Positions 238 through 29,083 are shown, numbered from the stretch's first letter. The stretch is DNA of 37,786 nt from Patescibacteria group bacterium (GCA_004322365.1 SCTS01000007.1:84266-122051), one strand, 5' to 3'. Numbers and translations are program-made. The notes: generated from the letters alone by a model not told the origin.

Positions 238-294
238 CAGGATTCAAGATTCAGGTTTTAAAAGCTGACAGCTGGAACCTGACACCTAAAAGCT
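238..294. repeat. Inverted heptamer-repeat element, empty site
   Basis: CAGGATT CAAGATT CAGGTTT - TAAA - AGCTGAC AGCTGGA ACCTGAC ACCTAAA AGCT, between divergent rpsT and ruvA. Confidence 0.8.
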
Positions 295-312
295 CCCTGC
301 TACAATAGCCCT

Positions 313-885
313 ATGATTGGCTCTTTAGACGGCACCGTGCGAGGCATAATTCGTGACTCTATCATCCTTGAAATAAACGGGGTTGGTTATCGTGTTTCTG
401 TACCTATAGCAACGCTCACTGGAGCTAAAGAAGGTGACCATCTTTTCCTCTGGATACACATGGCAGTGCGCGAAACTGCACAAGACCTCTACGGATTTGA
501 AACTCAAAATGAACTTTCTTGGTTTGAACTTCTTCTTTCTGTTTCAGGTGTTGGGCCTAAATCAGCGCTCGGCATTATGAATGCGGTAGACACAAAATCC
601 TTGGAGAAAGCAATCGCAAGAAACGATGCTTCCATTCTTTCAAAATCATTCGGTGTAGGGAAAAAGACAGCAGAGAAAATAGTTCTTGAGCTTCGAGAAA
701 AAGTGGGTTCAGTCGAAGACAAGGGCACTGAGAGCGGGTCTGATGGTGATGTTGTTGATGCACTTGTCGGCCTGGGCTATTCACTTCGGGAAGCTCGTGA
801 CGCAGTGCATGCTGTTTCAAAAGACCTTGTAACGCCCGAGGCACGCCTCCGTGAAGCAATCCGTATTGCATCACGCTCTCGTTAA
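313..885 (+). CDS. ruvA: Holliday junction branch migration protein RuvA
   Basis: MIGSLDG..GVGY, LYGF, HhH motifs VSGVGPKSAL and GVGKKTAEKIVLEL, C-terminal ALVGLGY. Confidence 0.97.
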   Translation: MIGSLDGTVRGIIRDSIILEINGVGYRVSVPIATLTGAKEGDHLFLWIHMAVRETAQDLYGFETQNELSWFELLLSVSGVGPKSALGIMNAVDTKSLEKAIARNDASILSKSFGVGKKTAEKIVLELREKVGSVEDKGTESGSDGDVVDALVGLGYSLREARDAVHAVSKDLVTPEARLREAIRIASRSR

Positions 886-890
886 ACACT

Positions 891-2159
891 ATGGTACGGA
901 TACTAAAAAAGATACTAGAGAGACTCATACCGTCTTTTATTTTTTCTCGCATGATAGTTGCCTATCATTTTCTTTTATCACTTTTCAGCGCCCTCATTGC
1001 GGGGTTTCCCTCTCGTAAACTTTTTGTCATAGGTATCACTGGCACTAAAGGCAAGTCATCCGTATCTGAAATGATGAATGCAATACTTGAAGAAGCTGGT
1101 TATCGCACGGCACTTGCAAACACCATTCGTTTTAAAATAGACAAAGATTCAAGGCGAAACCTTTTCAAAATGACCATGCCGGGGCGTGGATTTTTACAAC
1201 ATTTTTTAAAGGAGGCAAAGAAAAAAGATTGCACCCATGTAGTATTTGAAATTACCTCAGAAGGCGCGCGTCAGTTTAGAAATGCCTTCATAGATCTTAA
1301 TGCACTGATATTCACCAATATCGCCCCTGAACATATTGAGTCGCACGGCTCATACGACGCGTACAAAAAAGCAAAAGTTTCAATTGGCATGTCTATACTT
1401 CGCTCATCAAAACGACCTCGCATCATTGTGGCAAATCCAAATGACGAAGTTGGAAAAAAGTTTCTAGCAATCCCTGCTGAGAAAGTCATTCCCTTCCAGC
1501 TTGACGACGCAAATCCATATCAAACCAATCCAAATAAAGTTTCAATGACTTTCAAAGGAGTCACCTTTGATGTGCCCTTCCCTGGTACCTTCACTATTGA
1601 GAACGCGCTCTCTGTTGCAACACTTGCTGACGCCATCGGCATTAGCCCTGAAGTAATAGGACGAGCACTTCAGCATATGCGACCGATTGAAGGCAGAGTT
1701 GAAAGAATTGAAATGGGGCAAAAATTCACTGCCGTGGTTGACTACGCCCACACGCCTGATTCTCTAAAGGCACTCTACGGCGCATTCCCACAGGTGCGAA
1801 AAATCTGTGTTTTAGGAAACACCGGTGGCGGCCGAGATACATGGAAGCGCGGAGAAATGGGTGCCATAGCAGATAAGGAATGCGATATCGTAATTCTCAC
1901 CAATGAGGATCCATACGATGAAGACCCGGTGAAGATAGTTGAAGCAATGCGAGCTGGCATGGCGCGCGCCCCTCTTGTAATTATGGATCGTCGTGAAGCT
2001 ATTACTCATGCGCTCCACCTTACACAAAGTGGAGACGCTGTACTTATAACAGGCAAAGGAACAGACCCTTACATAATGGGTGCCTCCGGAGAGAAAACCC
2101 CTTGGTCCGACTCTGGCGTTGTGCGAGAAGAGCTTGAAAAAATACTGCACAAAAAATAA
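891..2159 (+). CDS. murE: MurE-like Mur ligase (UDP-N-acetylmuramyl-tripeptide synthetase)
   Basis: GITGTKGKSS P-loop, FTNIAPEH, VVDYAHTPDSL, GGGRD, LITGKG. Confidence 0.85.
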   Translation: MVRILKKILERLIPSFIFSRMIVAYHFLLSLFSALIAGFPSRKLFVIGITGTKGKSSVSEMMNAILEEAGYRTALANTIRFKIDKDSRRNLFKMTMPGRGFLQHFLKEAKKKDCTHVVFEITSEGARQFRNAFIDLNALIFTNIAPEHIESHGSYDAYKKAKVSIGMSILRSSKRPRIIVANPNDEVGKKFLAIPAEKVIPFQLDDANPYQTNPNKVSMTFKGVTFDVPFPGTFTIENALSVATLADAIGISPEVIGRALQHMRPIEGRVERIEMGQKFTAVVDYAHTPDSLKALYGAFPQVRKICVLGNTGGGRDTWKRGEMGAIADKECDIVILTNEDPYDEDPVKIVEAMRAGMARAPLVIMDRREAITHALHLTQSGDAVLITGKGTDPYIMGASGEKTPWSDSGVVREELEKILHKK

Positions 2160-2191
2160 CAAAGTGCATTTGAGGTAGTATTATTCAATCT

Positions 2192-3172
2192 ATGGGCAAC
2201 GCAAAAGGTGATCTTTTAATAGTCATCCTACTTTTAATAGCGCTCGGCATTGCGTGGGTTATGACTGGTGGCCCTAGAAACACCATAGCTCATCAAAGCG
2301 GACTCTTCAGTGCACCTTGGCCTTTGGGGAATAATGGCAATGCATACAAAGTGCCATTAGTTCCGCTAGGAACGGGTGACGCATCTTCAAGTGACACATC
2401 CGACACCTCTAGTACGCCAATACCAAGCAACACAAAGACGAGCGTCTTTGATTCTTTCTTTGGATATCGCCCCGGAGTTGGGCGCGCAACAGACCCAAGC
2501 ATGTCACCTTATGCTGAGTTCGTTCGACTCGATCGCGGAAATGCAACAAGTCAAGACGCCAAAAATGAATATGTCACCATCCGCATTTCAGGTTCTCCAA
2601 AAAACAACTTAATTCTCACAGGCTGGATACTTCAAAGCAGTACAAATAGCACCAAGGTTGTCATTGGTCCCGCGGCACAAACTCCGTCACTCGGCAATAT
2701 AAATACCGATACATCAATCTCGGTAAATTCTGGCGCCACAATTCATGTGACCACAGGGAGATCACCAAACGGTGCGTCATTTCGAATCAACCAATGCACA
2801 GGGTATTTTGAACAGTTCCAAGATTTTTCTCCTGCGCTTCCACAAGACTGTCCACGACCACGAGATGAAATGTACTTATTCCCTGAGAAAACCGCAGGAA
2901 ATGCTGAGTGTGAAGCCTTCATTAATACACTCCGCCAATGCACACTTACCGTAACAGAAATTCCTGGGAAAATTGGCAACAACTGCCAAGACTTTGTCCT
3001 CAACAATCTTTCGTATAACGGATGTGTGATCAAACACAGAAATGATGCTGACTTCTATAAGAATGAGTGGCGAGTATTTTTAGGGCGCGATCAAGAGCTC
3101 TGGGGCAATAGCCATGACAGAGTTCTTCTCCTTGATGAGAACGGAAGGTTAGTTTCCTCAGTGAGTTATTAG
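2192..3172 (+). CDS. Membrane-anchored Cys-rich exported protein with lamin-tail-like segment
   Basis: N-terminal TM helix, Ser/Thr linker, NEYVTIR...LTGWIL resembles an LTD motif, six Cys in the C-terminal half. Confidence 0.6.
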   Translation: MGNAKGDLLIVILLLIALGIAWVMTGGPRNTIAHQSGLFSAPWPLGNNGNAYKVPLVPLGTGDASSSDTSDTSSTPIPSNTKTSVFDSFFGYRPGVGRATDPSMSPYAEFVRLDRGNATSQDAKNEYVTIRISGSPKNNLILTGWILQSSTNSTKVVIGPAAQTPSLGNINTDTSISVNSGATIHVTTGRSPNGASFRINQCTGYFEQFQDFSPALPQDCPRPRDEMYLFPEKTAGNAECEAFINTLRQCTLTVTEIPGKIGNNCQDFVLNNLSYNGCVIKHRNDADFYKNEWRVFLGRDQELWGNSHDRVLLLDENGRLVSSVSY

Positions 3173-3208
3173 ATTTCCCCTACTGCTACATAGTAGGTTT
3201 TTGAACTC

Positions 3209-3421
3209 CTATGTTTGGCTAGCTTCTTCCTTAATCAAACTCATAGTGTCGCTTTCCATAAATGTAACCTTCCCTCCTGGACGACGAATCCCTATTGAAT
3301 ATCGGAGAATTTCAATAACATCAAACAAGATACCGCCACGACGAACCTGGTCTCCCACCCCTACTTCGCCTCCCTGGACTTTCGCCCGTTCACGCTCAGG
3401 TTGTCGATCGTGCCGTCCCAT
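3209..3421 (-). CDS. Small hypothetical protein (70 aa), possible beta-barrel
   Basis: Fills the gap downstream of trmH on the same strand; -10-like TAGTAT 6 nt before the ATG. Confidence 0.5.
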   Translation of the reverse strand: MGRHDRQPERERAKVQGGEVGVGDQVRRGGILFDVIEILRYSIGIRRPGGKVTFMESDTMSLIKEEASQT

Positions 3422-3447
3422 CGCGCGATACTAATACTGCGCGAACT

Positions 3448-3936
3448 CTATGTCAAAGATTCTGATGCCTTGAAAAGAATAATCCCTGCCGCTACTGACA
3501 CATTCAAAGACTCCTTCGCTCCTCGCATAGGAATCTCAACTACTTCATCGCACACACGAAGAATCGCGGACGACACTCCGAGCACCTCGTTGCCTAAAAT
3601 AATCGCGAGAGGAAATTTTGGCTTCCATTTCGTGCAAGAAACTGCGCTTGGTGACTGCTCCCCTGCAACAATGTGCACACCACTCTTTTTTAATCTTTTT
3701 ATAAGTGCACCAACACTTTTACAAGATTCCCAGGGAATGATTTTTTCAGCACCGAGCGCGGTCTTTGCTATCTTATTGTCCGCACGGTTGAATCGATCAA
3801 GCGGAGCGGGAGTATAGCCAGTAAGATATATCTTCTGAATTCCTACTGCGTCAGCGGTACGAAATATCGCACCAACATTTTGTGCGCTCCGAATATTGTG
3901 GAGAATAAGAAAAAATTGTGCAGAGTTTAAATTCAC
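3448..3936 (-). CDS. TrmH/SpoU family RNA methyltransferase
   Basis: HNIRSAQNVGAIFRTADA, LGNEVLGV, IPMRGAKESLNVSVAAGI (SPOUT motifs). Confidence 0.92.
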   Translation of the reverse strand: MNLNSAQFFLILHNIRSAQNVGAIFRTADAVGIQKIYLTGYTPAPLDRFNRADNKIAKTALGAEKIIPWESCKSVGALIKRLKKSGVHIVAGEQSPSAVSCTKWKPKFPLAIILGNEVLGVSSAILRVCDEVVEIPMRGAKESLNVSVAAGIILFKASESLT

Positions 3937-3990
3937 AATGCATACCGTAGCATTTTGAAGCCAAATGCTCCATGTGCTACCATTTGTTGT

Positions 3991-4338
3991 ATGGAAAGTT
4001 TATTCCCCAGCCTCTTCACCTTCTCGTATTTCGCACCACTTATATTGCGTATCGCTATTGCAGTAGTCCTCTTTGAAGCTGCTCGTGGTACTTGGAAACA
4101 ACAAAAAAAGGGCAAGGTGGCATCTTTTACTTCCGCAATATTAGGTATTGCTCTCGTCTTTGGCGCATTTACACAACTTACTGCCATATTGGGGATTATA
4201 GAGATCGGCATTCTTACCGCACAGAGAGGTGTTCCTTCCATATTTCACAGAAGAGCTTTTGCGCTTCTTGTTATCGCAATTCTTCTTTCACTCTTGATCA
4301 CCGGCCCTGGGGCAATGGCAATAGACTTGCCGTACTAG
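3991..4338 (+). CDS. DoxX-like membrane protein
   Basis: Probable start ATG at 3991 (TACCAT -10-like element just upstream); four hydrophobic segments; PLILRI and C-terminal TGPGAMAID. Confidence 0.7.
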   Translation: MESLFPSLFTFSYFAPLILRIAIAVVLFEAARGTWKQQKKGKVASFTSAILGIALVFGAFTQLTAILGIIEIGILTAQRGVPSIFHRRAFALLVIAILLSLLITGPGAMAIDLPY

Positions 4339-4358
4339 TAAGGAAAATATCGGAAACA

Positions 4359-4748: not shown

Positions 4749-4752
<4 letters not shown>
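4359..4752. repeat. Three related GCAC-N4-GTGC hairpins plus duplicated tRNA 3' end
   Basis: Hairpins at 4359-4384, 4538-4589 and 4708-4752; GTGCGCCCGCCTGGGCTCG is identical at 4585-4603 and 4748-4766. Confidence 0.8.
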
Positions 4753-4821
<69 letters not shown>

Positions 4822-5744: not shown

Positions 5745-5756
5745 TTTAATAGAGTA

Positions 5757-5784
5757 CAGGTTTCGGGTTTCGGATTCCAGTTTT
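5757..5784. repeat. Heptamer-repeat arm upstream of holA
   Basis: CAGGTTT CGGGTTT CGGATTC CAGTTTT. Confidence 0.6.
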
Positions 5785-5796
5785 TCTTGTTTTTAA

Positions 5797-5838
5797 CTGT
5801 ATAGTATAACCTAACGATCGTTAAATTATACTATACAG
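5797..5838. repeat. 42-bp near-perfect palindrome
   Basis: CTGTATAGTATAA CC TAACGATCGTTA AA TTATACTATACAG (two mismatched pairs). Confidence 0.85.
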
Positions 5839-5920
5839 CTCTTTCCCCTTTATTTTTATTTGGTTTAAGAAAGTGAAAATCTAAAAATTAGATGCCCCTG
5901 TGGACCCGAAGGAGTGTCGC

Positions 5921-8816: not shown

Positions 8817-8851
8817 AACTAACCCCTAGCACCTAGAACCTAAAACCTAGC
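8817..8851. repeat. Heptamer-repeat arm upstream of pilB
   Basis: AACTAAC CCCTAGC ACCTAGA ACCTAAA ACCTAGC, followed by TACTAT (-10-like, 8859-8864). Confidence 0.8.
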
Positions 8852-8870
8852 TTTAAGGTACTATTGCTCT

Positions 8871-10544
8871 ATGGCACAAACTGACGACACCGATAATCGA
8901 CTTAAAGAGCTCCAACTTCGAGAAGAAGAGGAGCTCGCCCTCATCCTCTCGCACAGGTATAACATTCGATATCTCGACCTGACGCGCGTCTCAATTAATT
9001 CTGACGCACTCCGACTCATAGAAGAACCTGTAGCTCGTCTCGCTGAAATCGCAGGCTTTGACATTGTAGGTAAAAAACTAACCATCGCTGTTCGCTCACC
9101 ACAACATCCTAAATTGCCTGCAATCCTTGAAGACTTAGAGAAGCGCGGATACACAGTAGAACAGGTGTTGGTATCGCGCGCATCCTTAGCGAGAGCTTGG
9201 GAGCACTACAAAGATCTTTCATTTGCCGTTGAATCAAAGCAGGGCGTTTTAGATGTCTCCCCAACGGAGCTGAAAAAAGTACTTGAAAGTATTCATACGA
9301 TTGAGGATATCCAAAAAGCAGTCGCCAGTGTTACTGAAATGAAACGAGCCTACCGTGTTTCAAAAATTCTGGAAGTAGTACTCGCCGGAGCATTTGCAGT
9401 TGACGCATCGGACATTCACATCGAACCTGAACAAAATCAGGTGCGCTTGCGCTATCGCCTTGACGGTGTGTTGCATGATGTCATTAACTTTGACCTCGAT
9501 ACAGCAAATCTTCTCTTGTCACGACTAAAACTTCTTTCTGGTCTTAAACTGAATCTAAAAAATCGTCCACAGGATGGCAGATTCAGCCTTGTTATGGATG
9601 CAAAAGAGATTGAGATTCGTGCTTCCGTTATTCCTGGTGCGTACGGTGAGACTGTCGTGATGCGCCTCTTAAATCCCGACACCATTTCCGTTCCATTTGA
9701 AGCTTTGGGTATGGAGCCAAAATTGCGAGCACTTATTGAGCGCGAAATTGGTAATCCAAATGGCATGCTTTTAAATACAGGACCTACAGGAAGCGGTAAA
9801 ACAACCACGCTGTATGCGTGCATGAAAAAAATTAATTCTTCAGAAATTAAAATTATTACCATTGAAGACCCTGTGGAATACCATGTTGCCGGATTGGTGC
9901 AGACACAGGTGGATGAAAAAAACTACACATTCCTTCAAGGGCTCCGCTCCGCACTCCGTCAAGATCCCGATGTCATCATGATCGGAGAAATCCGCGATGA
10001 AGAAGTCGCAAAAACGGCAATCGACGCGGCGCTTACGGGACACTTCGTATTTTCAACACTCCATACCAACGATGCTGCAGGGTCCTTCCCTCGACTTGTT
10101 GATCTTGGTGTGGATCCAAAAGTATTTGGTTCCGCAATCAATATCGCCATGGCACAGCGCTTAGTAAGAGTCTTATGTAAGCAATGCAAAAAAGAAGTCC
10201 CTCTTGAAGGTAAGAACAAAGAGCGTGTTGATAAAGTGCTCGCAGGTCTTCGAGATAAGACGGCCATCCCCGCTGACATTTCCAAAGTATTTGAGCCTGC
10301 TGGGTGCTCTGTCTGCAACAACACTGGATTCAAGGGCCGTATTGGTGTTTTTGAGGCAGTCGTTATTGATAGCGAGATGGATGCACTTCTTCGCACTTCC
10401 CCTTCAGAACATGAAATACAGGCACTCCAGCATAAAAAAGAAATACTAACGATGGTTGAGGACGGCATCATGAAAGTCTTAACTGGAGTTACTTCACTTG
10501 ATGAACTAAATCGGGTTGTCTTAATCGAAGAAACACTCAAATAA
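8871..10544 (+). CDS. pilB: Type IV pilus / type II secretion assembly ATPase (PilB/GspE family)
   Basis: ASDIHIEP, PQDGR, GPTGSGKTTT, TIEDPVE, LRQDPDVIMIGEIRD, STLHTN, two CxxC motifs. Confidence 0.9.
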   Translation: MAQTDDTDNRLKELQLREEEELALILSHRYNIRYLDLTRVSINSDALRLIEEPVARLAEIAGFDIVGKKLTIAVRSPQHPKLPAILEDLEKRGYTVEQVLVSRASLARAWEHYKDLSFAVESKQGVLDVSPTELKKVLESIHTIEDIQKAVASVTEMKRAYRVSKILEVVLAGAFAVDASDIHIEPEQNQVRLRYRLDGVLHDVINFDLDTANLLLSRLKLLSGLKLNLKNRPQDGRFSLVMDAKEIEIRASVIPGAYGETVVMRLLNPDTISVPFEALGMEPKLRALIEREIGNPNGMLLNTGPTGSGKTTTLYACMKKINSSEIKIITIEDPVEYHVAGLVQTQVDEKNYTFLQGLRSALRQDPDVIMIGEIRDEEVAKTAIDAALTGHFVFSTLHTNDAAGSFPRLVDLGVDPKVFGSAINIAMAQRLVRVLCKQCKKEVPLEGKNKERVDKVLAGLRDKTAIPADISKVFEPAGCSVCNNTGFKGRIGVFEAVVIDSEMDALLRTSPSEHEIQALQHKKEILTMVEDGIMKVLTGVTSLDELNRVVLIEETLK

Positions 10545-10580: not shown

Positions 10581-10757
10581 CGTGCCAAAATAAAAAATCG
10601 CACCCCTCTAAACAACGCTTGCAGTGAAGGTGGAACAAATGATGAGGAGACTCCCAGAGAATAACCGAGGTCAGACTTCCAGCAGATCCTTACAATGATG
10701 CCACGGCGTTGCTTAGATGGGCACGATTTTTTAGAATAAAACCCCTTTCGGGGTTAC
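10545..10757 (-). ncRNA. Candidate ~200-nt structured non-coding RNA, family unknown
   Basis: Upstream promoter on the minus strand, 5' GAAA-tetraloop hairpin, 28-bp stem with G-U pairs, terminator, no ATG ORF; ends are approximate. Confidence 0.55.
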
Positions 10758-10763
10758 AATGGT

Positions 10764-10792
10764 ACGATAGCATACGCTTTTATATATGTCAA
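10764..10792 (-). promoter_or_regulatory. Sigma70-type promoter pointing away from ruvB
   Basis: TTGACA (10792-10787), 17-nt spacer ending in TGC, then TATCGT (10769-10764). Confidence 0.65.
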
Positions 10793-11817
10793 GTACTCAA
10801 TCAAAGAAGATTCATTCTGAGGAAGAGGGGCCAAAAGAAGCTGGGGAACGCGTCCTAGACCAAACTCTACGACCGGAGGCTTGGGAGGAATACGTGGGAC
10901 AAGAAAATGTAAAGGAAAACCTCCGCGTACTTATAGCAGCTGCGAGAGAAAGAAACCATGCGCCTGAACACACACTCCTCTATGGTCCTCCTGGGCTTGG
11001 GAAAACAACCCTGGCACACCTTGTGGCGAAAGAGCTTGGTGCAAACATGCGAGCAACGGCAGGGCCTGTTATTGAGCGCGTAGGTGACCTCGCTGCAATT
11101 CTCACCAACTTAGAGCCTGGGGATGTATTGTTTATCGATGAGATACACAGGCTCAATAAAACAATCGAGGAAGTTCTCTACCCCGCCATGGAAGCTGGGA
11201 AGCTGGATATCATTATCGGTAAAGGTCCGTCAGCTCGCACTATTGAGCTAGCACTTCCCTCTTTCACACTCGTTGGTGCAACGACACGCATAGGACTTAT
11301 TTCTGCACCACTTCGTTCTCGTTTTTCAGGCGGAGTATTCCAACTTGATTTTTATTCTGAAAAAGAAATTGAACGAATTCTTGCTCGTTCTGCAAAAATT
11401 CTTGGCATTGAAGCCGATGTCGATGCTCTTCAAGAGATTGCAAAACGCTCTAGAAAAACTCCACGTACTGCAAACTACCTTCTAAAACGCTCCCGTGATG
11501 TTGCACAGCTCGACCGCACAACACTCTCAAAAGTAGCGGCAGAAAAAGCACTCGCCATGATTGGCATAGACACAGCTGGACTTACTCCGTCAGACAGGCG
11601 CATTCTTGAGGCGCTCATAACAAAATTCGCAGGGGGTCCCGTGGGTGTAAAAACTCTTGCAGCTGCTGCAGCCGAAGACGAACAAACTATTGAGGATGTC
11701 TATGAGCCGTATTTAATGCAGGAAGGATTTTTGGAACGCACTCCGCGAGGTCGCATCGTTACAGCTCGCGCACGCGAGCATTTAGGAAAACAAGGTGTAC
11801 AAAAAAAACTTATATGA
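10786..11817 (+). CDS. ruvB: Holliday junction branch migration helicase RuvB
   Basis: [46 protein letters not shown]. Confidence 0.98.
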
Positions 11818-12907: not shown

Positions 12908-12948
12908 ATAATAAAAAACCTCGCGAGCGCGAGGTTTTTTATTATTTA
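12905..12948. terminator. Bidirectional intrinsic terminator
   Basis: TAAATAATAAAAAA CCTCGCG AG CGCGAGG TTTTTTATTATTTA between convergent genes. Confidence 0.85.
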
Positions 12949-16388: not shown

Positions 16389-16390
16389 CT

Positions 16391-16468
16391 GCAAGTGCTC
16401 GCTTCTAGGGACTAGGTGCTAGGTGTAAATCCAGAAAGCTAAAACCTAGCACCTGACACCTATAACCT
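16391..16468. repeat. Inverted heptamer-repeat element
   Basis: CTCGCTT CTAGGGA CTAGGTG CTAGGTG - 11 nt - AGCTAAA ACCTAGC ACCTGAC ACCTATA ACCT, between convergent stops. Confidence 0.88.
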
Positions 16469-16470
16469 TC

Positions 16471-16734
16471 CTATCGGATATCCCTCACAGTATTTCGCGC
16501 TTTCGGCATCTCTTGGAAAAGCTCATTGAGAATGGCGCCACGAGCAACCTGAATGGCGCTTTTTGCAACCGAAGAACAGCGAATAAATGCCACGGAATTT
16601 GATATGGACACATCTTCTTTTTTCACAGGAACTTTCGCAACAAAAAAAACAGCTGAAGCAACCGCGCGACGCACAGCATCATCTGGTGGTGTTAAGTTTT
16701 GGAAACGGGCAAGAAAATCATTTACGAGTTTCAT
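16471..16734 (-). CDS. Hypothetical protein, possible DciA (DUF721)-like helicase-loading factor
   Basis: 87 aa, directly downstream of dnaN; beta-beta-helix pattern VSISNSVAFIRCSSVAKSAI..AILNEL. Confidence 0.5.
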   Translation of the reverse strand: MKLVNDFLARFQNLTPPDDAVRRAVASAVFFVAKVPVKKEDVSISNSVAFIRCSSVAKSAIQVARGAILNELFQEMPKARNTVRDIR

Positions 16735-16807
16735 AAGGTGCTAAGTGCTAGGTGCTAGGTGCTAGCTTTTAAAGCTAGAAGCTAGTCCCTAGAACCTATA
16801 AACTAAC
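16734..16807. repeat. Inverted heptamer-repeat element, cleanest empty site
   Basis: TAAGGTG CTAAGTG CTAGGTG CTAGGTG CTAGCTT - TTAA - AGCTAGA AGCTAGT CCCTAGA ACCTATA AACTAAC; fills the whole intergenic gap. Confidence 0.92.
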
Positions 16808-17907
16808 TAACGATTCATCGGCATCACTAAGTATGTGAAGCCTTTATTAGGGACATCATTCATAACCATCGGCTTCCCAGCACCAGCTACAGAGAAAGTA
16901 ACGCTATCACCCACCACTATCGAAAGAGCATCAACAATATATTTTGCATTGAAATTAATATCAATATCTTCACCCTCAAGAACTGCTGGAATATGGTCAA
17001 TAGTTTCTCCCACCGAGGCATTCACCGCACGAACAGTGAATGTCTTTTCAGAAGCCTTTAATGAAATGTGTACCTGATTGAAAGAGTCCGTAAAAATTGA
17101 AATTTTTCTAAAAGCGCGTGACGCATCCTCTTTTAAACATGTCGCCGAAGCAACATAATTACGCGGAATAATTGCCTGATAGTCTGGGAAAGATCCATCT
17201 ATAGTTCGAGAAGTAATGTGCCCAAAATCAGATATAAATGAACACTGATTGTCCCCAACACGAACCTCAACATCAACACCTGACTCAATTGCCCTTAATA
17301 TATCAGGAACATTTCGTGCTGGTATTAGTACAGAATTAAATGAATTTTTTGTTTTTATAGGTATTTTTATTTCAGCAAGACGAAATGAATCTGTTGCCAC
17401 AGCAACAAGCTCCCCTTTTTCTAAAGTAAGGGAGATACTTGAAAGTTCTGGTTTTACACTAGAGGTTGACGCTGCAAATGAAACCGACTTCAATGCTGTT
17501 ATAAATTCTCGAACAGGTAAAGTTGCGGAACTCCCAACCCCATCCTTAACATATGATAATGTTGGGAATTCAGATGGATCAATAAGTGCTATAGAGGTAG
17601 TTCCCCTTTCACCATCAATAACAAGATTATTTCCTGATGTTTTTAATAATAATTTCTGATCAGTAAGTGCTGAAGTAGTTTGTGCAAGTATGTGTGCAGG
17701 AATAGCAATAATTCCATCTTGGATTATTTTTGCTTTAAGAATAACTTCTACACTTAAATCAAGGTTTGTTGCGCGAAGTACTGCCCTATCACCCTCAACA
17801 ACAATTACCACACAACCAAAAACAGGTAGTGAAAGATTTTTATTACTAACCTTAGATGCTATAGCAACAGCTTTCTCTAAGTTCTCTCTTAAAATTTCAA
17901 TTTTCAT
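16807..17907 (-). CDS. dnaN: DNA polymerase III beta sliding clamp
   Basis: ATNLD, VATDSFRLA, FPDYQAIIP, FNAKYIVDAL, YLVMPM; downstream of dnaA. Confidence 0.97.
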   Translation of the reverse strand: MKIEILRENLEKAVAIASKVSNKNLSLPVFGCVVIVVEGDRAVLRATNLDLSVEVILKAKIIQDGIIAIPAHILAQTTSALTDQKLLLKTSGNNLVIDGERGTTSIALIDPSEFPTLSYVKDGVGSSATLPVREFITALKSVSFAASTSSVKPELSSISLTLEKGELVAVATDSFRLAEIKIPIKTKNSFNSVLIPARNVPDILRAIESGVDVEVRVGDNQCSFISDFGHITSRTIDGSFPDYQAIIPRNYVASATCLKEDASRAFRKISIFTDSFNQVHISLKASEKTFTVRAVNASVGETIDHIPAVLEGEDIDINFNAKYIVDALSIVVGDSVTFSVAGAGKPMVMNDVPNKGFTYLVMPMNR

Positions 17908-19757: not shown

Positions 19758-19768
19758 GGCAGAGATAG

Positions 19769-19846
19769 TTAGTGTTTAGGATGATTTTCACGTCTTAGTT
19801 TTCTGAATTTAAGCTAGCGCCTAGTCCCTTGAAGCTAGAACCTATC
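19769..19846. repeat. Heptamer-repeat element between rpmH and rnpA
   Basis: Degenerate left arm, TTTA core, then AGCTAGC GCCTAGT CCCTTGA AGCTAGA ACCTATC (19812-19846). Confidence 0.75.
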
Positions 19847-19852
19847 GTTTCA

Positions 19853-20167
19853 ATGTTGTCGAAAAAAGAACGGGTTTCAAGGCTTACTTTCCAAAAGCGA
19901 CCTGTGCGAACGGGTCGCTTTATATATGGCTCTATAAAAGGGTTTGAGGGGCATCCGTCAGGTGCAGTTGTTGTGTCAAAAAAGGTTTGCCCCACAGCGC
20001 CCGAGCGAAACAAGCTTAGACGGCGCATTTATAACATTATTCGACCCCTTATCCGCACTGGAGCGATTGCCGGTGTGGTGGTCGTGTATCCAAACTCAGC
20101 GGCCCGCACAGCGAAGTTTAGTGAACTTAAAAGAGAACTGGAGAAGGTTCTAGGTGTTAGGTTATAG
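19853..20167 (+). CDS. rnpA: Ribonuclease P protein component
   Basis: VVVSKKV..APERNKLRRRI (RNR motif); rpmH-rnpA-yidC synteny; ATG at 19853. Confidence 0.9.
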   Translation: MLSKKERVSRLTFQKRPVRTGRFIYGSIKGFEGHPSGAVVVSKKVCPTAPERNKLRRRIYNIIRPLIRTGAIAGVVVVYPNSAARTAKFSELKRELEKVLGVRL

Positions 20168-20268
20168 CTTCTAGCTTTGAATTTAGAATCTGAATTTTCC
20201 CCGCAGCACAGCTGCGGGGTTTTTGATTTCAGAAAAAGCTAACACCTAACACCTAGTCCCTAGAACCT
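20143..20268. repeat. Inverted heptamer-repeat element enclosing a terminator
   Basis: Left arm CTAGGTG TTAGGTT ATAGCTT CTAGCTT (overlaps the rnpA stop); right arm AGCTAAC ACCTAAC ACCTAGT CCCTAGA ACCT (20237-20268). Confidence 0.85.
20199..20224 (+). terminator. Intrinsic terminator after rnpA
   Basis: CCCCGCAGC ACA GCTGCGGGG TTTTT. Confidence 0.8.
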
Positions 20269-20297
20269 TTTAGCCTCCTAGGCTACAATGCGATGAA

Positions 20298-21032
20298 ATG
20301 GCATCTTTTTTCCACACAGCAATCTATCAACCAATTTACAATGCGCTCGCTTTTATTATTGGTGTTGTACCAGGAGGTGATATAGGAATTGCCATTGTTC
20401 TCATCACGATACTTGTACGTCTCATCCTGTTCCCTCTCTCGATGTCTGCGATTAAAACACAGATTTCGATGCGTTCCATTGAGCCACAATTGAAGGAGCT
20501 CCGGGAAAAATTAAAAGACAACAAGGAAGAGCTGGCCCGTCGCACAATGGCACTTTTTAAAGAAAATAATATCAACCCCTTTGCAAGCTTTCTTCTCATA
20601 TTAATTCAACTTCCAATAATCATTGGGCTGTATCTCGTACTGGAGCACGAAAGCAAGGCGGTCTCATTTGACCCCAGCATTCTCTACGCGTTTGTGCAGG
20701 TTCCTGACCAAGCGTCGTTACTATTTCTTGGCTTTGTAGATCTTGCAGGCAAAAGTATTGTTCTCGCTATCATAGTGGCTATTACGCAGTTTATTTATGC
20801 TCGTCTTATGATGCCAGCGCTACCCCCTAAAAATACTTCAGGAAGCAAGCCTTCTTTCCAAGATGACCTATCGAGAAGTATGAATCTCCAAATGAAGTAT
20901 GTTTTCCCCGTTGTTATTGGCGTGGTTGCATATGCGGCGTCGTCAGCAATTGCGCTGTACTTTCTTGTAGGCAATCTTTTCAGTATTGGGCAAGAGTTAG
21001 CAATACGCCGAATGCACAATGGAAAAAAATAA
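20298..21032 (+). CDS. yidC: Membrane protein insertase YidC/Oxa1 (short form)
   Basis: GIAIVLITILVRLILFPL, INPFAS..LIQLPIIIGLY, ALYF..NLFSIGQ. Confidence 0.95.
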   Translation: MASFFHTAIYQPIYNALAFIIGVVPGGDIGIAIVLITILVRLILFPLSMSAIKTQISMRSIEPQLKELREKLKDNKEELARRTMALFKENNINPFASFLLILIQLPIIIGLYLVLEHESKAVSFDPSILYAFVQVPDQASLLFLGFVDLAGKSIVLAIIVAITQFIYARLMMPALPPKNTSGSKPSFQDDLSRSMNLQMKYVFPVVIGVVAYAASSAIALYFLVGNLFSIGQELAIRRMHNGKK

Positions 21033-22717: not shown

Positions 22718-22721
22718 AGTG

Positions 22722-23666: not shown

Positions 23667-23671
23667 GGTAA

Positions 23672-24640
23672 TTAAAATGTGAGTTGAAATGTAGTATCTC
23701 CGCGCTCTAAGAATTTTTTCATATTTTCAAATGAGACACTCACCGTATGTGTTCCTTTACCACCTCCAACCTTCCTAAATGTAGCATTACGAGGCCGTGC
23801 AGGGTCAACTGCAAATGGAGAGGTGTCGAGGTTCCATGTATAGGACACATCATTCATATTGCTCACAAAGAGCGGGTACGCAACGAATGATACCTCCTCG
23901 TTAATAAATGGGAATAGTCCCGCCTCGGCTTTATTGAAGCGCACGCCAAGAAGTGGTGCGTCCTCATAAATAATAAGAGATGGTGTTTGTGGTTGGATGA
24001 GAACTGAATTTTCTGCGACTACTGTTCCGCTTTTGTTGCTCACAAGAACAGAAACAGTAAAAGCAGAACCAAAGCGCGGAGGAGTTACTGCGATGCTTGA
24101 TTTCCCGTAGCCTGATTGTTTTTGTAAAGTAACCCCACCCATTTTCCATGAATAGATAAGAGATTCAGGTTCAGCCTCAATACCGTTTATAGGAAGATGA
24201 GGGATAGCAATAACCGTAACTATACTTTGTGCGGTAGGAAGTGGGCGCCCAATATACAAAGGAGGTGTGTAGGTATCCCCTTCCCATATAATATCTACCG
24301 ACGCTGGTCGAATGATGGTCACGGCATCGCCTCTAGCAACATCATTTTCAATAGCGATAACGCGTATGGTTTCAGCCGTTCCTTCTCCTCTTGCCGTGAT
24401 AGAAATTGATTTGTGCCCGATGCCCTGATCAACCATTCTGTCGTTTACTAACCACATGTACGCCGTTGTACCCACCTCTTCCTGCGGGTCGGAGACCGTT
24501 AGTGTTACTTGATTGCCTGCGCGTGGGTGCTCGGGGCTTACCCCTATTTCTAGAGGTGAGCCAAAGCTTGGTAGCATAGCCGCTGAAGCAAAAATGGGCG
24601 CTAAGGTTAATAGAGAAAGCACGAGTATTCCACGGAGCAT
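23672..24640 (-). CDS. Exported protein with probable Ig-like domains
   Basis: Signal peptide; three Y-x-W repeats (AYMW, IYSW, SYTW); TYTPPLYIGRPLP. Confidence 0.6.
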   Translation of the reverse strand: MLRGILVLSLLTLAPIFASAAMLPSFGSPLEIGVSPEHPRAGNQVTLTVSDPQEEVGTTAYMWLVNDRMVDQGIGHKSISITARGEGTAETIRVIAIENDVARGDAVTIIRPASVDIIWEGDTYTPPLYIGRPLPTAQSIVTVIAIPHLPINGIEAEPESLIYSWKMGGVTLQKQSGYGKSSIAVTPPRFGSAFTVSVLVSNKSGTVVAENSVLIQPQTPSLIIYEDAPLLGVRFNKAEAGLFPFINEEVSFVAYPLFVSNMNDVSYTWNLDTSPFAVDPARPRNATFRKVGGGKGTHTVSVSFENMKKFLERGDTTFQLTF

Positions 24641-24663
24641 AGTTCTTATTATAAGGGACGGGG

Positions 24664-24876
24664 AAGCTTTCAGCTTTCAGCTTTCAGCTTTCAGGGGGAC
24701 ATTGTCAGAGGGTAAGGTTGGCCTCCGGTCTCTAGCCTTTAGGCGACACCTCTGATGCTTCATCACCCTGTCGAGGGTTCGGATCCGGAGAGATCACAGG
24801 AAGCGGAGCTAGGAGTTAGGGGGGTTGGAAGTTAGAAGCTGAAACCCGACAGCTAGAAGTTTGAAGCCAAAAGCTA
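24664..24876. repeat. Inverted heptamer-repeat element with ~120-nt structured insert
   Basis: Left arm AAGCTTT (CAGCTTT)x3; right arm AGTTAGA AGCTGAA ACCCGAC AGCTAGA AGTTTGA AGCCAAA AGCTA, ending in the virB4 stop. Confidence 0.8.
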
Positions 24877-26685: not shown

Positions 26686-26687
26686 GG

Positions 26688-27359
26688 TTATATAAGTGGC
26701 GCGTTAGCCTGATCCATAACGATTGGTTTTTCCAACTCCCCAGGGTTGAACTCTTTGTAGAGAAGCTCTATCACCTCTTCAGTACCAAGAGGAACGGTTC
26801 GTACCCCTGTGCGTGCCAACCCTTGTTCCACCACCCCCATTCTCTGCTCCAACTGTGTACGGTGTTCCTCAAAACCAATAGCATTCTCATCTCTCGATGA
26901 CAGATTTGTCTTCCCAAACACTTTATTTTGCACTGCTTTTTTTATATCAAGAGCTGGTGGAGAGTATGGAACAACAATAAAGAAATGTTTACTCATAATG
27001 TTCGCTCTCTCAATGAATGTTTTGATGAACTCTATATATTCGCGCACCTGTATTTTCATCAACTCCTCCGTCTGTGCCTTTAGTCGTTCTTCCAGAAGTG
27101 CTATGTAGGGTCTGATATCGAGTTTTCGCGATTGTATGAAAAACTGAACACTGAAATCAAGCGAATTCATAAAGCTCTGAAATTGCGAGAGTATGGCGTT
27201 TTGCTCGTCCTCTGACTTCAGTGCAAAGTTAATACTTGAAGCAAGCATGACCCCGACGAGTGTGCCATTTTTCATTACCATCACACCGCCACGAACTTCC
27301 TTCACTGGAACGAAGTCCTGAGCCGCTTTTGTTTTTGTTGTTTTTTGGTCGCCAGACAT
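26688..27359 (-). CDS. T4SS-associated protein (VirB4/TraC N-terminal-like) upstream of virB4
   Basis: SSINFALKSEDEQNAI..FMNSLDFSVQ..SRKLDI..Y; 2-bp gap to virB4. Confidence 0.7.
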   Translation of the reverse strand: MSGDQKTTKTKAAQDFVPVKEVRGGVMVMKNGTLVGVMLASSINFALKSEDEQNAILSQFQSFMNSLDFSVQFFIQSRKLDIRPYIALLEERLKAQTEELMKIQVREYIEFIKTFIERANIMSKHFFIVVPYSPPALDIKKAVQNKVFGKTNLSSRDENAIGFEEHRTQLEQRMGVVEQGLARTGVRTVPLGTEEVIELLYKEFNPGELEKPIVMDQANAPLI

Positions 27360-27367
27360 ATTGTTGG

Positions 27368-27807
27368 GAGGGTTCTAGCTTCTAGGTGCTAGGTTTTAGC
27401 TTTAAGACTCGCAATGATAGCAACGAGCATCTTCGAAACTTCCTGTAGCGCCGCTACTATTTCATTATAGTCGACTTTTTCTCCGTACTCTAAGCGTTTT
27501 GCTATTTCAAGCTGTGTTTCTAGTTCAGATACAGAACCTAAAGCAATGTGCAGGAATTGGGCGAAGTCTTTTCTGGTACTTCTCGATCTGCCCTCCGCTA
27601 TGTTGGAAGAAATTGAAACCGCCGCTCGTCTCATTTGATTAATGAGACCGAATTTCTCTTCAGACGGAAACTTAGAAGTAAGTTTGTAAATTATAATCGC
27701 TAAATCTATCCCCTTCTGCCACACAATAAGGTCTTTATGAGAATAGATTTTAGTCTTATTTGTTTGCATTTTAAAAGCTGGCACCTAAAACCTAGTCCCT
27801 AGCACCT
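27368..27807. mobile_element. Putative heptamer-arm cassette carrying a four-helix-bundle gene
   Basis: Left arm CTAGCTT CTAGGTG CTAGGTT TTAGC-TTTAA (27375-27405); right side TTTAAA-AGCTGGC ACCTAAA ACCTAGT CCCTAGC ACCT (27770-27807); mobility is inferred. Confidence 0.5.
27389..27769 (-). CDS. Four helix bundle protein (TIGR02436 / 23S rRNA IVS protein-like)
   Basis: HKDLIVWQK, FPSEEKFGLINQMRRAAVSISSNIAEG, FLHIALGSVSELETQL; ATG at 27769. Confidence 0.93.
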   Translation of the reverse strand: MQTNKTKIYSHKDLIVWQKGIDLAIIIYKLTSKFPSEEKFGLINQMRRAAVSISSNIAEGRSRSTRKDFAQFLHIALGSVSELETQLEIAKRLEYGEKVDYNEIVAALQEVSKMLVAIIASLKAKT

Positions 27808-27809
27808 TC

Positions 27810-28247
27810 TTATCTCTGTTTCTTGTCCGAATACATACTCTCTTTTATGTCCAAGCTCCACGCTAAGTCTTTAATCTTGTTTGAAGTGGCCGAAGGTGCG
27901 TATTTTGCCGGATCTTCAGCGGGTGTTTGCCCAGGAAGAGTAATTTCGTCAGGGAGGACAGTCTTTGATTGTTTCTTCTCCCAAATGTAGAGTTTTGTGC
28001 GAAAAAGGTATTGGAAGCCAGATTCAAGTGCATTTATGAGAGGGCGGTCGTTGATTTTGTAGAATGCGAGTGCAGCACCTAAAAGTGCAATTGGCCCACC
28101 AATAACTATTGCAAGCCAGTGCGGCATAACAAACCACAGCGCTACGAGGAATCCTCCTCCTCCGACGAGGTATATAAATTGTACGGCAGTTAGAGGACCG
28201 AAAATTTTGTCTTCAACTTCAACGAACTGAGGAACTTGGAATTGCAT
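27810..28247 (-). CDS. prgI: PrgI family protein (VirB3-like)
   Basis: MQFQVPQFVEVEDKIFGPLT..QF, two TM helices, YIW. Confidence 0.88.
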   Translation of the reverse strand: MQFQVPQFVEVEDKIFGPLTAVQFIYLVGGGGFLVALWFVMPHWLAIVIGGPIALLGAALAFYKINDRPLINALESGFQYLFRTKLYIWEKKQSKTVLPDEITLPGQTPAEDPAKYAPSATSNKIKDLAWSLDIKESMYSDKKQR

Positions 28248-28252
28248 ACTAG

Positions 28253-28292
28253 TAAGGGTATAGCGTTTAGTGGTTAGCGTCTAGGGTTTTAA
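28253..28292. repeat. Variant heptamer arm followed by TTTAA
   Basis: TAAGGGT ATAGCGT TTAGTGG TTAGCGT CTAGGGT TTTAA; weak partner arm TCCCTAA ACGCTAA ACCCCAC at 29011-29031. Confidence 0.65.
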
Positions 28293-28325
28293 GGAGAATA
28301 AAAAACTTCCTTAATTTAATGTATG

Positions 28326-28348
28326 TGTGGGATTTCGTAAATCCCACA
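28326..28348. repeat. REP-like hairpin (copy 1 of 3)
   Basis: TGTGGGATTT CGT AAATCCCACA; related copies at 29174-29198 and 29808-29828. Confidence 0.75.
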
Positions 28349-28403
28349 TGCATGCGTCAAGAGTCCCCTATTTGAATTGTTTCTATATATGGAAATTTTT
28401 ACC

Positions 28404-28437
28404 ATTCCTATATACCAGTTAACTGGTATATAGGAAT
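28404..28437. repeat. 34-bp perfect palindrome
   Basis: ATTCCTATATACCAGTT|AACTGGTATATAGGAAT. Confidence 0.92.
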
Positions 28438-28541
28438 TAACGCTCTGCGGAGGTCCGACATTTGCACTCTCTACATATCCGATGAAGCGTCCTCACCGCT
28501 TCATTCTCGCGACCCGGTTGTTGTTATTAGTAAGTATGTCA

Positions 28542-28955
28542 TTAGAAGGTTATTCTGATGTGCGCCATTTCCCCACGTGAGATCCACCCACCCCCGTTGG
28601 GACCCTTTTCGCTACGTTCTCCAGGGAAGAGTGAAAACTTAAATCCGTTCTCAGTACAAAATTTTTTAATTTTTTTAAATGCTTGGAATTTCTCCATGTC
28701 CACTAATTCCAAATGTCCACTAAGGTTTTGATTAATATGTGTTCCTCCTCTGCTAGCTGCTTCTAGTATCTTTTGGTGTAGATTATGATAAAAGACCTCT
28801 AGTGAGTCTGCGATCTCAGGGTATTTTTTTTCCTGTACCTGCATACGTTCTTCTTCTTTTTCTTTCTCTTCTTTCTCAACACGAAGTCTTATTCTATGTT
28901 CCTCAATCATTCGCTGTAGCGACAAACCTTGTGGGGATTGGGAAGATTTTTCCAT
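28542..28955 (-). CDS. Hypothetical protein, paralog of 29248-29763
   Basis: ATG at 28955, 8 nt after a -10-like element; shared sequence blocks with the neighbour. Confidence 0.7.
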   Translation of the reverse strand: MEKSSQSPQGLSLQRMIEEHRIRLRVEKEEKEKEEERMQVQEKKYPEIADSLEVFYHNLHQKILEAASRGGTHINQNLSGHLELVDMEKFQAFKKIKKFCTENGFKFSLFPGERSEKGPNGGGWISRGEMAHIRITF

Positions 28956-29000
28956 ACCCAAGCACCCTACGCTGAATATTCTTTTTGTCAAACAGCAATG
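28948..29000 (-). promoter_or_regulatory. Duplicated promoter/start block, copy 1
   Basis: TTGACA-16 nt-TAGGGT-GCTTGGGT-ATGGAAAA. Confidence 0.7.
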
Positions 29001-29083
29001 ACAAACACCATCCCTAAACGCTAAACCCCACCCTCCTACTTCACCCTACTGGTTCTCGGAGATCGCATACAGTCGTCTGAATG

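Follow-up and report, generated by a model that had tools for sequence, protein, structure and literature searches.

Short palindromes that lie between genes or at operon ends in Enterobacteria and Pseudomonas, described as bacterial interspersed mosaic elements (BIMEs), repetitive extragenic palindromes (REPs) and REP doublets forming hairpins (REPINs), are mosaics of inverted units and small inter-unit motifs that are lineage-specific and form hairpins. The Correia elements of Neisseria (Correia repeat enclosed elements, CREE) are intergenic palindromes of about 100 bp with a 26-bp terminal inverted repeat, a TA duplication, outward-facing -10 boxes at their ends and a possible RNase III hairpin, and the attC sites of integrons, including the Vibrio cholerae repeats, are imperfect inverted repeats of variable sequence and conserved architecture that accompany small orphan gene cassettes. 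Intergenic heptanucleotide tandem repeats are known from cyanobacteria as short tandemly repeated repetitive (STRR) sequences. In work on REPs, REPINs and BIMEs (PMC3116915, PMC3337134, PMC3733652), a REP is defined as a GC-rich palindrome that measures 20-40 bp and bears a conserved GTAG or CGTC tag (PMC3733652). An account of the TAACTGA repeats of Beggiatoaceae and Cyanobacteria, which also cites Mrazek et al. 2007 on long simple sequence repeats, describes one exact heptamer in direct orientation on the gene strand (169 direct sets versus 1 indirect), mainly intergenic, often immediately upstream of start codons that have no ribosome-binding site, and patchily distributed, for which polymerase slippage was proposed (PMC4679880). 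Here we describe a dispersed family of inverted 7-nt arrays in a 37,786-nt stretch of DNA (the window; contig C6:84266-122051) from a genome of the Patescibacteria (candidate phyla radiation, CPR), referred to as G000 (787 kb, 8 contigs, 44% G+C).

The heptamer arrays are real and occur far beyond chance. We favour, at a probability of roughly 45%, the interpretation that they form a mosaic repeat family resembling BIMEs, REPINs and Correia elements, which slippage and recombination would drive and of which a part would have been co-opted for leaderless promoters and hairpins. A large share of bacterial diversity belongs to the Patescibacteria, which have tiny genomes whose expression signals are almost unstudied.

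Heptamer arrays across the genome

Using a strict scan that required at least three units in phase and was tested against five shuffles, we found 49 arrays with a CTAG core in G000 versus 0-1 per shuffle; 44 were intergenic, 4 lay at an edge and 1 was coding. With a generic YYAG core the scan returned 149 raw arrays versus 3-5 in the five shuffles, and orientation filtering by spacer composition left 115 arms. Fifty-three of these are K arms, defined as tandem YYAG+SKK units, and 62 are M arms, the reverse complement of K. By crude open reading frame (ORF) calls, 97 arms were intergenic, 7 edge and 11 'coding', most of the latter sitting 8-37 nt from an ORF end and 3 being truly internal. Assignment to a gap was possible for 107 arms, which occupied 86 of the 871 intergenic regions of G000 (~10%).

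CTAG itself is rare in this genome (1184 occurrences versus 2986 expected from base composition), and successive CTAGs were separated by 7 nt in 100 instances and by 14 nt in 26, against 1-8 instances for each of the other distances up to 45 nt. A motif-free search of the whole genome with Tandem Repeats Finder (TRF) recovered arrays with periods of 7 (103 arrays), 14 (42) and 21 nt (6), for which a shuffled genome yielded 17, 3 and 1; AACCTAG, AAAGCTG and ACCTAGC were the most frequent units. An earlier, sequence-only reading of the window had proposed a genome-wide period-7 scan with a CTAGGTG profile, and the 7-nt CTAG spacing and the excess of arms over shuffles bear out the periodicity that it had noticed. 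The shuffles, along with the presence of arrays in independent assemblies and contigs, rule out an origin by chance or artefact. The arrays are thus heptanucleotide tandem repeats in the usual sense, being 7-nt tandem, above chance and mainly intergenic.

The repeated unit consists of YYAG followed by a keto-rich triplet (GTG, GTT, CTT, GGA, CGT and others), as in CTAGGTG, TCAGCTT and TTAGCGT. When arms were sorted by their dominant core, 47 were CTAG, 34 TCAG/CCAG (YCAG) and 26 TTAG, and across all three types YYAG was invariant and the spacers keto-rich. The drifting sequence with a CAG-type variant that had been noticed in the window was confirmed there, and the 34 YCAG-dominant arms extend it to the genome. 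Perfect runs were also present, e.g. (CTAGAAC)x6 and (AGCTTTC)x4, which is what recent slippage would be expected to leave. The longest array seen, a perfect run of at least 11 CTAGGTG units, lies in a relative (G032:C105:19440-19513; other G numbers likewise denote related genomes) and fits a recent slippage expansion.

All ten intergenic loci at which the sequence-only reading had placed 7-nt arrays proved periodic, to within a few bases. On the window, TRF reported period 7 at 5759, 8825, 16736, 20239, 24665 and 27373 and period 14 at 28255; it also listed period 7 at 8323 and at 12938, where the sequences are T-rich and unrelated to the arrays.

Polarity, gene boundaries and turnover

The arms follow a strict polarity. 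Among gaps with both strict arms, 17 read KM, one KMM and one MKM, and none read MK alone. K preceded M in 19 of 19 strict pairs and in 12 further relaxed pairs, and M preceded K only once, within the MKM region. For 67 single-arm gaps, a two-unit partner was found on the expected side in 12, on the wrong side in none and was absent in 55; genome-wide, only a single arm is clear in over half of the gaps that carry arrays. Where both arms are present, a left arm faces an inverted right arm, as previously described for most of the window loci, and orientation is not random. Since a palindrome reads alike on both strands, this polarity amounts to one inherited bit of information and does not by itself prove function.

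A full element is an imperfect palindrome, with a heptamer array on the left, an AT-rich mini-hairpin in the middle and the reverse-complement array on the right. The centres are AT-rich (67% A+T). The TTTA(A) core that had been proposed for the inner junctions is enriched about 5-fold, with 14 TTTAA/TTAAA motifs in 19 centres versus 2.65 expected from array-free intergenic DNA, but it is not universal, occurring in 9 of the 19. Many centres carry the mini-hairpin consensus AGCTTT-TCTGAAATT-AAAGCT in either orientation, and the same centre was found in CTAG-type and CAG-type elements of G000, G017 and G014. Measured against dinucleotide shuffles, the median folding z score was -2.56 for the 19 K-M elements (-0.44 to -6.30) and -0.70 for 40 array-free gaps. 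Their stems are imperfect, mismatched and moderate, with no consistent T tract; K-M elements lack the GC-rich stem and U tract of an intrinsic terminator, and terminators are separate entities inside some of them. The dominant core type was equal in both arms of 14 of 19 pairs (permutation mean 9.8, P = 0.013).

We found no preference of the arrays for a gap type: arrays occupied 63 tandem gaps (background 307), 12 convergent gaps (background 66) and 11 divergent gaps (background 90). The arrays abut the start and stop codons of neighbouring genes, and in 8 instances a gene ends on a stop codon contributed by the array beside it. Fifty-seven of the 107 arms face gene starts and 50 face gene ends. 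As CTAG, CTAA and CTGA cores at period 7 produce stop codons in all three frames, the arrays would be confined to the DNA between genes, filling operon boundaries.

The genome is leaderless: of 489 genes with an upstream gap of at least 40 nt, 125 have TANNNT at its peak position of -12/-13 relative to the start codon, and no enrichment of a Shine-Dalgarno signal was found at its gene starts. The TANNNT box ends 6-7 nt before the ATG (in the window at 301-313, 8860-8873, 20284-20300 and 24641-24655), and operon-internal genes are joined by overlaps or by gaps of less than 15 nt. Arrays are phased with these boxes: TANNNT lies exactly 6 nt past the last core in 17 of 57 start-facing arms versus 7 of 50 end-facing arms, and the in-phase box is built from a variant unit, CTGTAAG, CTATAAC or CTATACA, each followed by CT. 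TAAGCT was the -10 box of 5 of 39 array-bearing promoters and did not rank in the top 20 boxes of the 122 promoters without arrays. These in-phase TANNNT and TAAGCT boxes suggest that the outermost unit, which is one substitution away from a -10 box, may often serve as one. At locus 8817, the -10 box TACTAT predates the arm, and array-free relatives have the box too. A canonical -35 box within the M arm was rejected, as only 2-3 of 6 positions matched at the right spacing when judged by eye. Canonical terminators were detected in 61 of the 350 gaps that follow a gene end (~17%). With this crude detector they were not significantly depleted in array gaps (8 of 64 versus 53 of 286 others, P = 0.28), and we discarded the idea that arrays substitute for them.

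To follow the arrays among relatives, the syntenic region was compared across nine genomes of the genus. G017, G006 and G014 have arrays at the same gaps as G000, often of another unit type; the gap at 16391 is CTAG-type in G000, CAG-type in G017 and G014 and TTAG-type in G006. In the more distant G004, G007, G001, G010 and G011, the corresponding gaps are 2-20 nt long and array-free. Array gaps were 0.36-0.86 identical to those of G017 and 0.32-0.61 to those of G006, compared with 0.79-0.95 for flanking genes and 0.84-0.98 for array-free gaps, and precisely at the edges of the genes the mismatch density climbed from about 1 per 30 nt to almost one in two bases. On contigs from other samples, whose flanks are ~97-99% identical, 16389-16478 was swapped for 94 or 76 other letters and 16734-16813 for 77 other letters. 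When 237 orthologous gaps were compared between G000 and contig C4 of G017, the two genomes shared an array in 23, whereas 7 had one in G000 alone, 5 in G017 alone and 202 had none. Empty and filled alleles, which had been predicted for relatives, were thus seen at orthologous gaps, together with replaced ones. No target-site duplication was recognisable at G000 C6:37047-37105 and C5:253022 in comparison with G017, element boundaries there not being sharply defined. Among the 86 element-bearing gaps the best non-self match was 86.5% over 89 nt, and matches above 90% covered at most 44 nt; the best full-length element matches within the genome were 77-87% identical, with no population of near-identical copies.

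The generic K pattern, summed over both strands, matched 163 times in G000, 183 in G014, 132 in G033, 127 in G006, 109 in G017, 41 in G002 and 32 in G003. Ten further genomes among the 33 of the genus had 1-11 matches and 16 had none, controls giving 0-1. The array-rich genomes fall in a single subclade, so that a correlation with the arrays would be expected for hundreds of genes. Of 301 genomes sampled from the class, 75 had at least one match and, besides G000, 11 had at least 10, with controls at or near zero; these 11 represent 9 families and use units including TTAGCTT and TCAGGTG. Among 80 loci of other Patescibacteria (L numbers), six carried convincing heptamer arrays by orthologous genes (L019, L049, L052, L060, L064 and L068), and four of the six had inverted arms composed of other units (ACAACCG, ACAATTT, AAGTnnn, CTACAAC). 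In L060 and L019, CTAG-type arrays lie just upstream of a PrgI-family gene, as in the window at 28253.

Enzyme searches in the genomes of the genus used the Y1_Tnp and RVT_1 profiles. RVT_1 gave no match in G000 and a match in only 3 of the 33 genomes, and we rejected generation of the arrays by a reverse transcriptase. Y1_Tnp matched in all 33, including the 16 genomes that have no arrays. The two Y1-transposase-like genes of G000, which resemble REP-associated tyrosine transposases (RAYTs) and encode ~220-230 aa (C5:216040-216732 and C7:18813-19478), are flanked on each side by their own GC-rich hairpins (e.g. TGTGCAACCTCCGGAGGTTGCACA) and not by heptamer arrays, so that a RAYT link was rejected as well. 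Neither a transposase nor a reverse transcriptase was linked to the arrays in these searches, which covered Y1_Tnp and RVT_1 only. Neither MutS_V nor the Rho RNA-binding domain had a match in G000, a genome scored 100% complete; RNase III is present (C3:25481-25882). Motif-based ideas that the arrays are primase sites, G-quadruplexes or CsrA decoys were dropped because other lineages use unrelated heptamers.

Loci of the window and the contents of the elements

The window, whose DNA is also matched in metagenomes from groundwater, aquifers and related sources but in no listed RNA data set, opens with rpsT and ruvA and contains one tRNA-Lys. Arms are described here as read on the plus strand. 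Beside the start of rpsT (minus strand), a CAG-type K arm (CAGGATT CAAGATT CAGGTTT; 238-258) is followed by an AT-rich centre (259-264, with TTTTAAAAG spanning 255-264) and an M arm (CTGACAG CTGGAAC CTGACAC CTAAAAG; 265-292), after which come the -10 box TACAAT (301-306) and, at 313, the leaderless ATG with which ruvA begins. The loci at 5757 and 8817 had been singled out as having one clear arm, and both are indeed single: a K-type arm (CAGGTTTCGGGTTTCGGATTCCAG; 5757-5780) and an M arm (CTAACCC CTAGCAC CTAGAAC CTAAAAC CTAG; 8819-8850), the latter with its conserved -10 box TACTAT directly downstream and an ATG at 8871. In the convergent gap at 16391, a K arm (CTAGGGA CTAGGTG CTAGGTG; 16405-16425) and an M arm (CTAAAAC CTAGCAC CTGACAC CTATAAC; 16439-16466) can form a 12-bp stem (minimum free energy -19.9, z -3.3). 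The next K arm (AAGGTG CTAAGTG CTAGGTG CTAGGTG CTAG; 16735-16765) directly adjoins the ATG of the minus-strand gene 16471-16734; next come the centre CTTTTAAAG (16766-16774), loop and stem of AGCTTTTAAAGCT, and an M arm (CTAGAAG CTAGTCC CTAGAAC CTATAAA CTAA; 16775-16806) that runs into the stop codon of gene 16807-17907. The two-arm build proposed at 19769 is clear for the right arm (CTAGCGC CTAGTCC CTTGAAG CTAGAAC CTA; 19814-19844), an M arm upstream of the RNase P protein gene, but the TTAG-type left K arm (19765-19783) is weak and degenerate; between them lies TTTTCTGAATTTAAG (19799-19813), which is the consensus centre of the family.

Several elements enclose additional DNA between their arms, and the identity of a gene that the sequence-only reading had called a four-helix bundle needs correction. 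At 20143, a K arm (20150-20174) overlaps the 3' end of gene 19829-20167, a canonical intrinsic terminator (CCCCGCAGC..GCTGCGGGG TTTTT; 20199-20224, plus strand) that is absent in G017 lies between the arms, and an M arm (20239-20267) precedes the -10 box TACAAT at 20284-20289 and an ATG at 20298. At 24664, a K arm with four perfect AGCTTTC units (24665-24694), which, read in gene sense, precedes both TATAAT and the ATG from which the leaderless gene 23672-24640 starts, is separated by a structured insert of ~120 nt (24695-24812) from a degenerate M arm (..AAGCTGA AACCCGA CAGCTAG AAG..AAAAGCTA; approximately 24820-24873). G017 lacks the insert, and G006 and G014 have a different one. The insert of G000 had no Rfam match at gathering thresholds, the tRNA being the only Rfam match in the window, and only pieces of 27-38 nt recur elsewhere in G000.

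The gene described as a four-helix bundle, on the minus strand at 27389-27784 with its likely true start at ATG 27767-27769, encodes a 23S rRNA intervening-sequence protein (PF05635, E = 2e-41). It is bracketed by a K arm with a half-centre CTTTAAG (GGTTCTAG CTTCTAG GTGCTAG GTTTTAG; 27371-27406), which gives the gene its stop codon, and by the half-centre TTTAAAAG with an M arm (CTGGCAC CTAAAAC CTAGTCC CTAGCAC; 27770-27805). Read in its own sense, it lies exactly between AGCTTTTAAA and CTTAAAGCT, that is, at the loop position of the central hairpin. PF05635 was found in 18 of the 33 genomes, comprising all 7 array-rich and 11 of 26 array-poor ones; G009 has five matches and no arrays, G035 has arrays and no match, and G004 has the gene there without the arms. 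As the family does not track the arrays, we rejected it as their trans-acting partner. A read-level 'empty site' joining 27396 to 27782 was not counted, since its shorter side has only 26 matching letters and probably represents another element copy; cross-locus read joints, best explained as other copies of the repeat family, were not counted either. The 23S rRNA gene of G000 lies outside the window (C6:17654-21016) and measures 3363 nt versus 2925 positions in the model, and therefore has ~440 nt of insertions; a K arm at C6:21392-21416 is ~380 nt upstream of its 5' end.

The last two-arm locus begins with a TTAG-type K arm and TTTTAAGG (GGGTATAG CGTTTAG TGGTTAG CGTCTAG GG; 28256-28294), which in gene sense supplies an in-phase -10 box, TACCCT, for the PrgI-family gene 27810-28247. 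It adjoins a variable island (28248-29830) with two paralogous orphan genes on the minus strand (28542-28991 and 29248-29799; 26% identity, E = 4e-10), each having its own TTGACA-N17-TAGGGT promoter and a leaderless ATG. A TTAG-type M arm (CTAAACG CTAAACC CCACCCTCC; 29014-29036) separates the two cassettes. At the same site, G002 has 2-3 nt, G006 has arms with two small modules, G014 another array type with another gene, and G017 two diverged cassettes with an M arm after each. The orphan proteins, of 149 and 183 aa, have no match in Pfam or PHROGs, and one has a single weak PADLOC match (E = 0.0028). The island is hypervariable, adjoins the PrgI-family gene and lies upstream of large same-strand genes. 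Hairpins like those flanking the Y1 genes (GTGGGA..TCCCAC) occur in it at ~28325-28350 and ~29170-29195. Genome-wide, genes bracketed by a K-only and an M-only gap numbered 7 and were mainly housekeeping (protease, HisRS, PNPase, rpsR), and the opposite bracket, from M-only to K-only, was commoner (15 cases).

Other repeats were seen alongside the arrays. The remainder of the gap at 5757 is occupied by a different dispersed repeat, a near-perfect 42-bp palindrome (5797-5838; CTGTATAGTATAA..TAACGATCGTTA..TTATACTATACAG, centre CGATCG) that is found at ~20 loci elsewhere in G000 (e.g. C2:57915, C3:1589 and C4:11974; 30 strand-hits genome-wide). As each of its strands has TATAGT/TATAAT-like boxes, this palindrome may serve as a promoter in both directions or as a REP-like site. 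A double-hairpin module of ~30 nt (GCGATGCTTCATCG GATCC GNAG GGATC AT) is always in the spacer position of a K arm, immediately after a YYAG core, at C3:26140, C4:15856, C4:10401, C5:40448, C5:265877, C5:109181, C5:47612, C6:10991 and C1:14284; degenerate copies are in the window at 24740-24800, within the ~120-nt insert, and near 5890-5917. Its second stem shows compensatory changes (GATCC/GGATC, GGTCC/GGACC, GTTCC/GGAAC), and in G017 one M arm bears the module where the duplicate arm has just 3 nt. A 241-nt intergenic stretch upstream of gene 10786-11817 (window 10590-10785) is 94-98% conserved in G017 and G006 and 69-73% in G014 and G002; without an Rfam match at the gathering score, this stretch may be a leader or a non-coding RNA.

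Competing explanations and described systems

In the interpretation that we favour, the arrays would arise, spread and turn over mainly through errors of host replication and recombination: 7-nt slippage in a genome lacking MutS, template switching between the two arms, and illegitimate or ectopic recombination, with no dedicated transposase involved. We infer both this origin and any effect on RNA or transcription. The outermost unit, one substitution off, would become the -10 box of a leaderless promoter, and through the two arms read-through RNA or single-stranded DNA would fold into a long imperfect hairpin that could act as an RNase III site, as a barrier or as a fragile site gathering DNA in its centre. 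Several observations weigh against this account. Because 55 of the 67 single-arm gaps have no partner arm, a hairpin cannot be the general point of the arrays. The centre is shared between elements, which argues for dispersal from a founder element by a mechanism that the account does not name. The element at 16734 is 0.86 identical between G000 and G014, compared with only 0.78 for its flanking genes, and this looks like constraint rather than neutral drift. A swap of unit type over a whole gap at ~3% flank divergence would be very fast for slippage in arrays of 3-5 units. Finally, the YYAG+SKK vocabulary, which recurs patchily in at least 10 other families of the class, and the arrays before a PrgI-family gene in the distant L060 and L019 suggest a conserved recognising factor or horizontal spread, neither of which this account requires. 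The vocabulary, the conserved 16734 element, the arrays before the same gene in distant lineages and the speed of the swaps keep explanations by factor binding or true mobility alive.

It is possible, though we consider it unlikely, that the arrays are cis sites for a dedicated host factor, either a DNA- or RNA-binding protein or RNA polymerase (RNAP) and sigma reading near-cognate -10 units, that marks operon boundaries without Rho or Shine-Dalgarno sites. The arrays would then be roadblock terminators, insulators or promoter antennae, and the unit types would co-evolve with the factor or be tolerated variants of YYAG+SKK. The invariant YYAG with keto-rich spacers over three unit types, a vocabulary shared by many families of the class, the phasing with true -10 boxes, the better conservation of the 16734 element than of its flanks in G014, the recurrence before the PrgI-family gene, the absence of Rho and the scarcity of canonical terminators after gene ends would all be accommodated. 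However, 16 of the 33 genomes have the same core machinery and no matches, other lineages use unrelated heptamers (ACAACCG, ACAATTT, AAGTnnn), arms face gene ends almost as often as starts, canonical terminators are not depleted in array gaps, and whole elements are swapped or lost between close relatives with no visible consequence; no candidate protein was identified, and no phyletic-profile search for co-occurring proteins was made. A bolder form of this idea, to which we give still less credence, is that of a 7-nt periodic intergenic 'boundary code' of the Paceibacteria class, in which inverted near-cognate -10 arrays read by RNAP/sigma or a dedicated factor would define leaderless promoters and stop or insulate transcription in cells lacking Rho, Shine-Dalgarno sites and mismatch repair, the heptamers CTAGGTG, TTAGCTT, ACAACCG, ACAATTT and AAGTnnn being its dialects. 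Active renewal of such a code would explain the swaps of whole elements between near-identical strains.

The sequence-only reading had taken the loci for landing pads or ends of a mobile or cassette system. The oriented arms, the TTTAA enrichment, the empty and filled states and the insertions at centres agree with it; the mobile or cassette system itself did not emerge, with no target-site duplication recognised, no pair above ~87% over at least 70 nt, no reverse transcriptase and a Y1_Tnp distribution that ignores the arrays. One version of it, which we regard as improbable and place below the boundary code, holds that the elements are true non-autonomous transposable elements, of the MITE (miniature inverted-repeat transposable element) or REPIN kind, mobilised in trans, e.g. 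by a Y1/RAYT-like protein acting on the hairpin, with YYAG cores as cleavage or target sites. Their palindromic architecture and shared centre, their patchiness within genus and class, the presence/absence differences where flanking genes are ~90% identical, the two Y1_Tnp-like genes of G000 and the double-hairpin module with its fixed position after a YYAG core and compensated stem would suit it. At the cleanest indels, however, no target-site duplications were seen, no near-identical full-length copies were found, the Y1_Tnp genes are flanked by different hairpins, and arm length and unit order vary in every copy, many of which are single arms. The other version, recombination sites of an integron-like gene-cassette system in which a site-specific recombinase would capture genes or modules between the arms, we consider very improbable. 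It is what the PF05635 gene sitting exactly between two half-centres, the two promoter-bearing paralogues of the island with their empty, module-bearing and two-cassette counterparts in G002, G006 and G017, and the centre insertions at 20143, 24664 and 19769 would lead one to expect. Against this, the bracketed genes are mostly housekeeping and the opposite bracket is commoner (15 versus 7), PF05635 does not track the arrays and is armless in G004, the sole read-level 'empty' joint is probably another copy, and no recombinase was linked to the arrays, none having been searched for.

The significance of the arrays depends on which account holds. If they are mere by-products of slippage without mismatch repair, as in the mosaic-repeat interpretation, they are a clear case from nature of promoters, hairpins and insertion hot spots being created by repeat dynamics in streamlined genomes; they could also serve as strain markers and would probably cause breaks in assemblies. 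Should a factor read them, they would show how these bacteria mark operon boundaries without Rho.

The array family appears to be undescribed, as our literature searches gave no account of such arrays in Patescibacteria. Like attC sites, the elements are imperfect inverted repeats of variable sequence, and the island at 28248-29830 brings them next to orphan cassettes; unlike attC sites, they are dispersed over all 8 contigs among housekeeping genes rather than forming a single cassette array, and a heptamer period is not an attC feature. They share inverted arms with MITEs, and in the two cases compared with G017, where element boundaries are not sharp, no duplication was recognisable. The arrays resemble the TAACTGA repeats in having period 7, in being mainly intergenic and restricted to non-coding DNA by stop codons in all frames, in often lying immediately before start codons without ribosome-binding sites, and in their patchy distribution; slippage has been put forward as the source of those repeats too. 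They differ from them in that the units of G000 are degenerate and of at least three types, the arms are inverted around a conserved centre and face gene ends in 50 of 107 cases, and arrays are swapped between close strains. Compared with Correia elements, they have no fixed 26-bp terminal inverted repeat, no TA duplication that we could see and no near-identical copies, and their arms are 7-nt periodic; they are similarly palindromic and intergenic, often abut genes, have ends that could supply -10 boxes and would give transcripts a hairpin that is a possible RNase III site. With respect to REPs and REPINs, the arms are degenerate heptamer arrays around AT-rich centres instead of GC-rich stems tagged with GTAG or CGTC, near-identical copies are lacking, and the Y1/RAYT-like genes neither track the arrays nor are flanked by them. 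In being intergenic, lineage-specific mosaics of inverted units that are capable of forming hairpins, the arrays are like BIMEs, REPs and REPINs.

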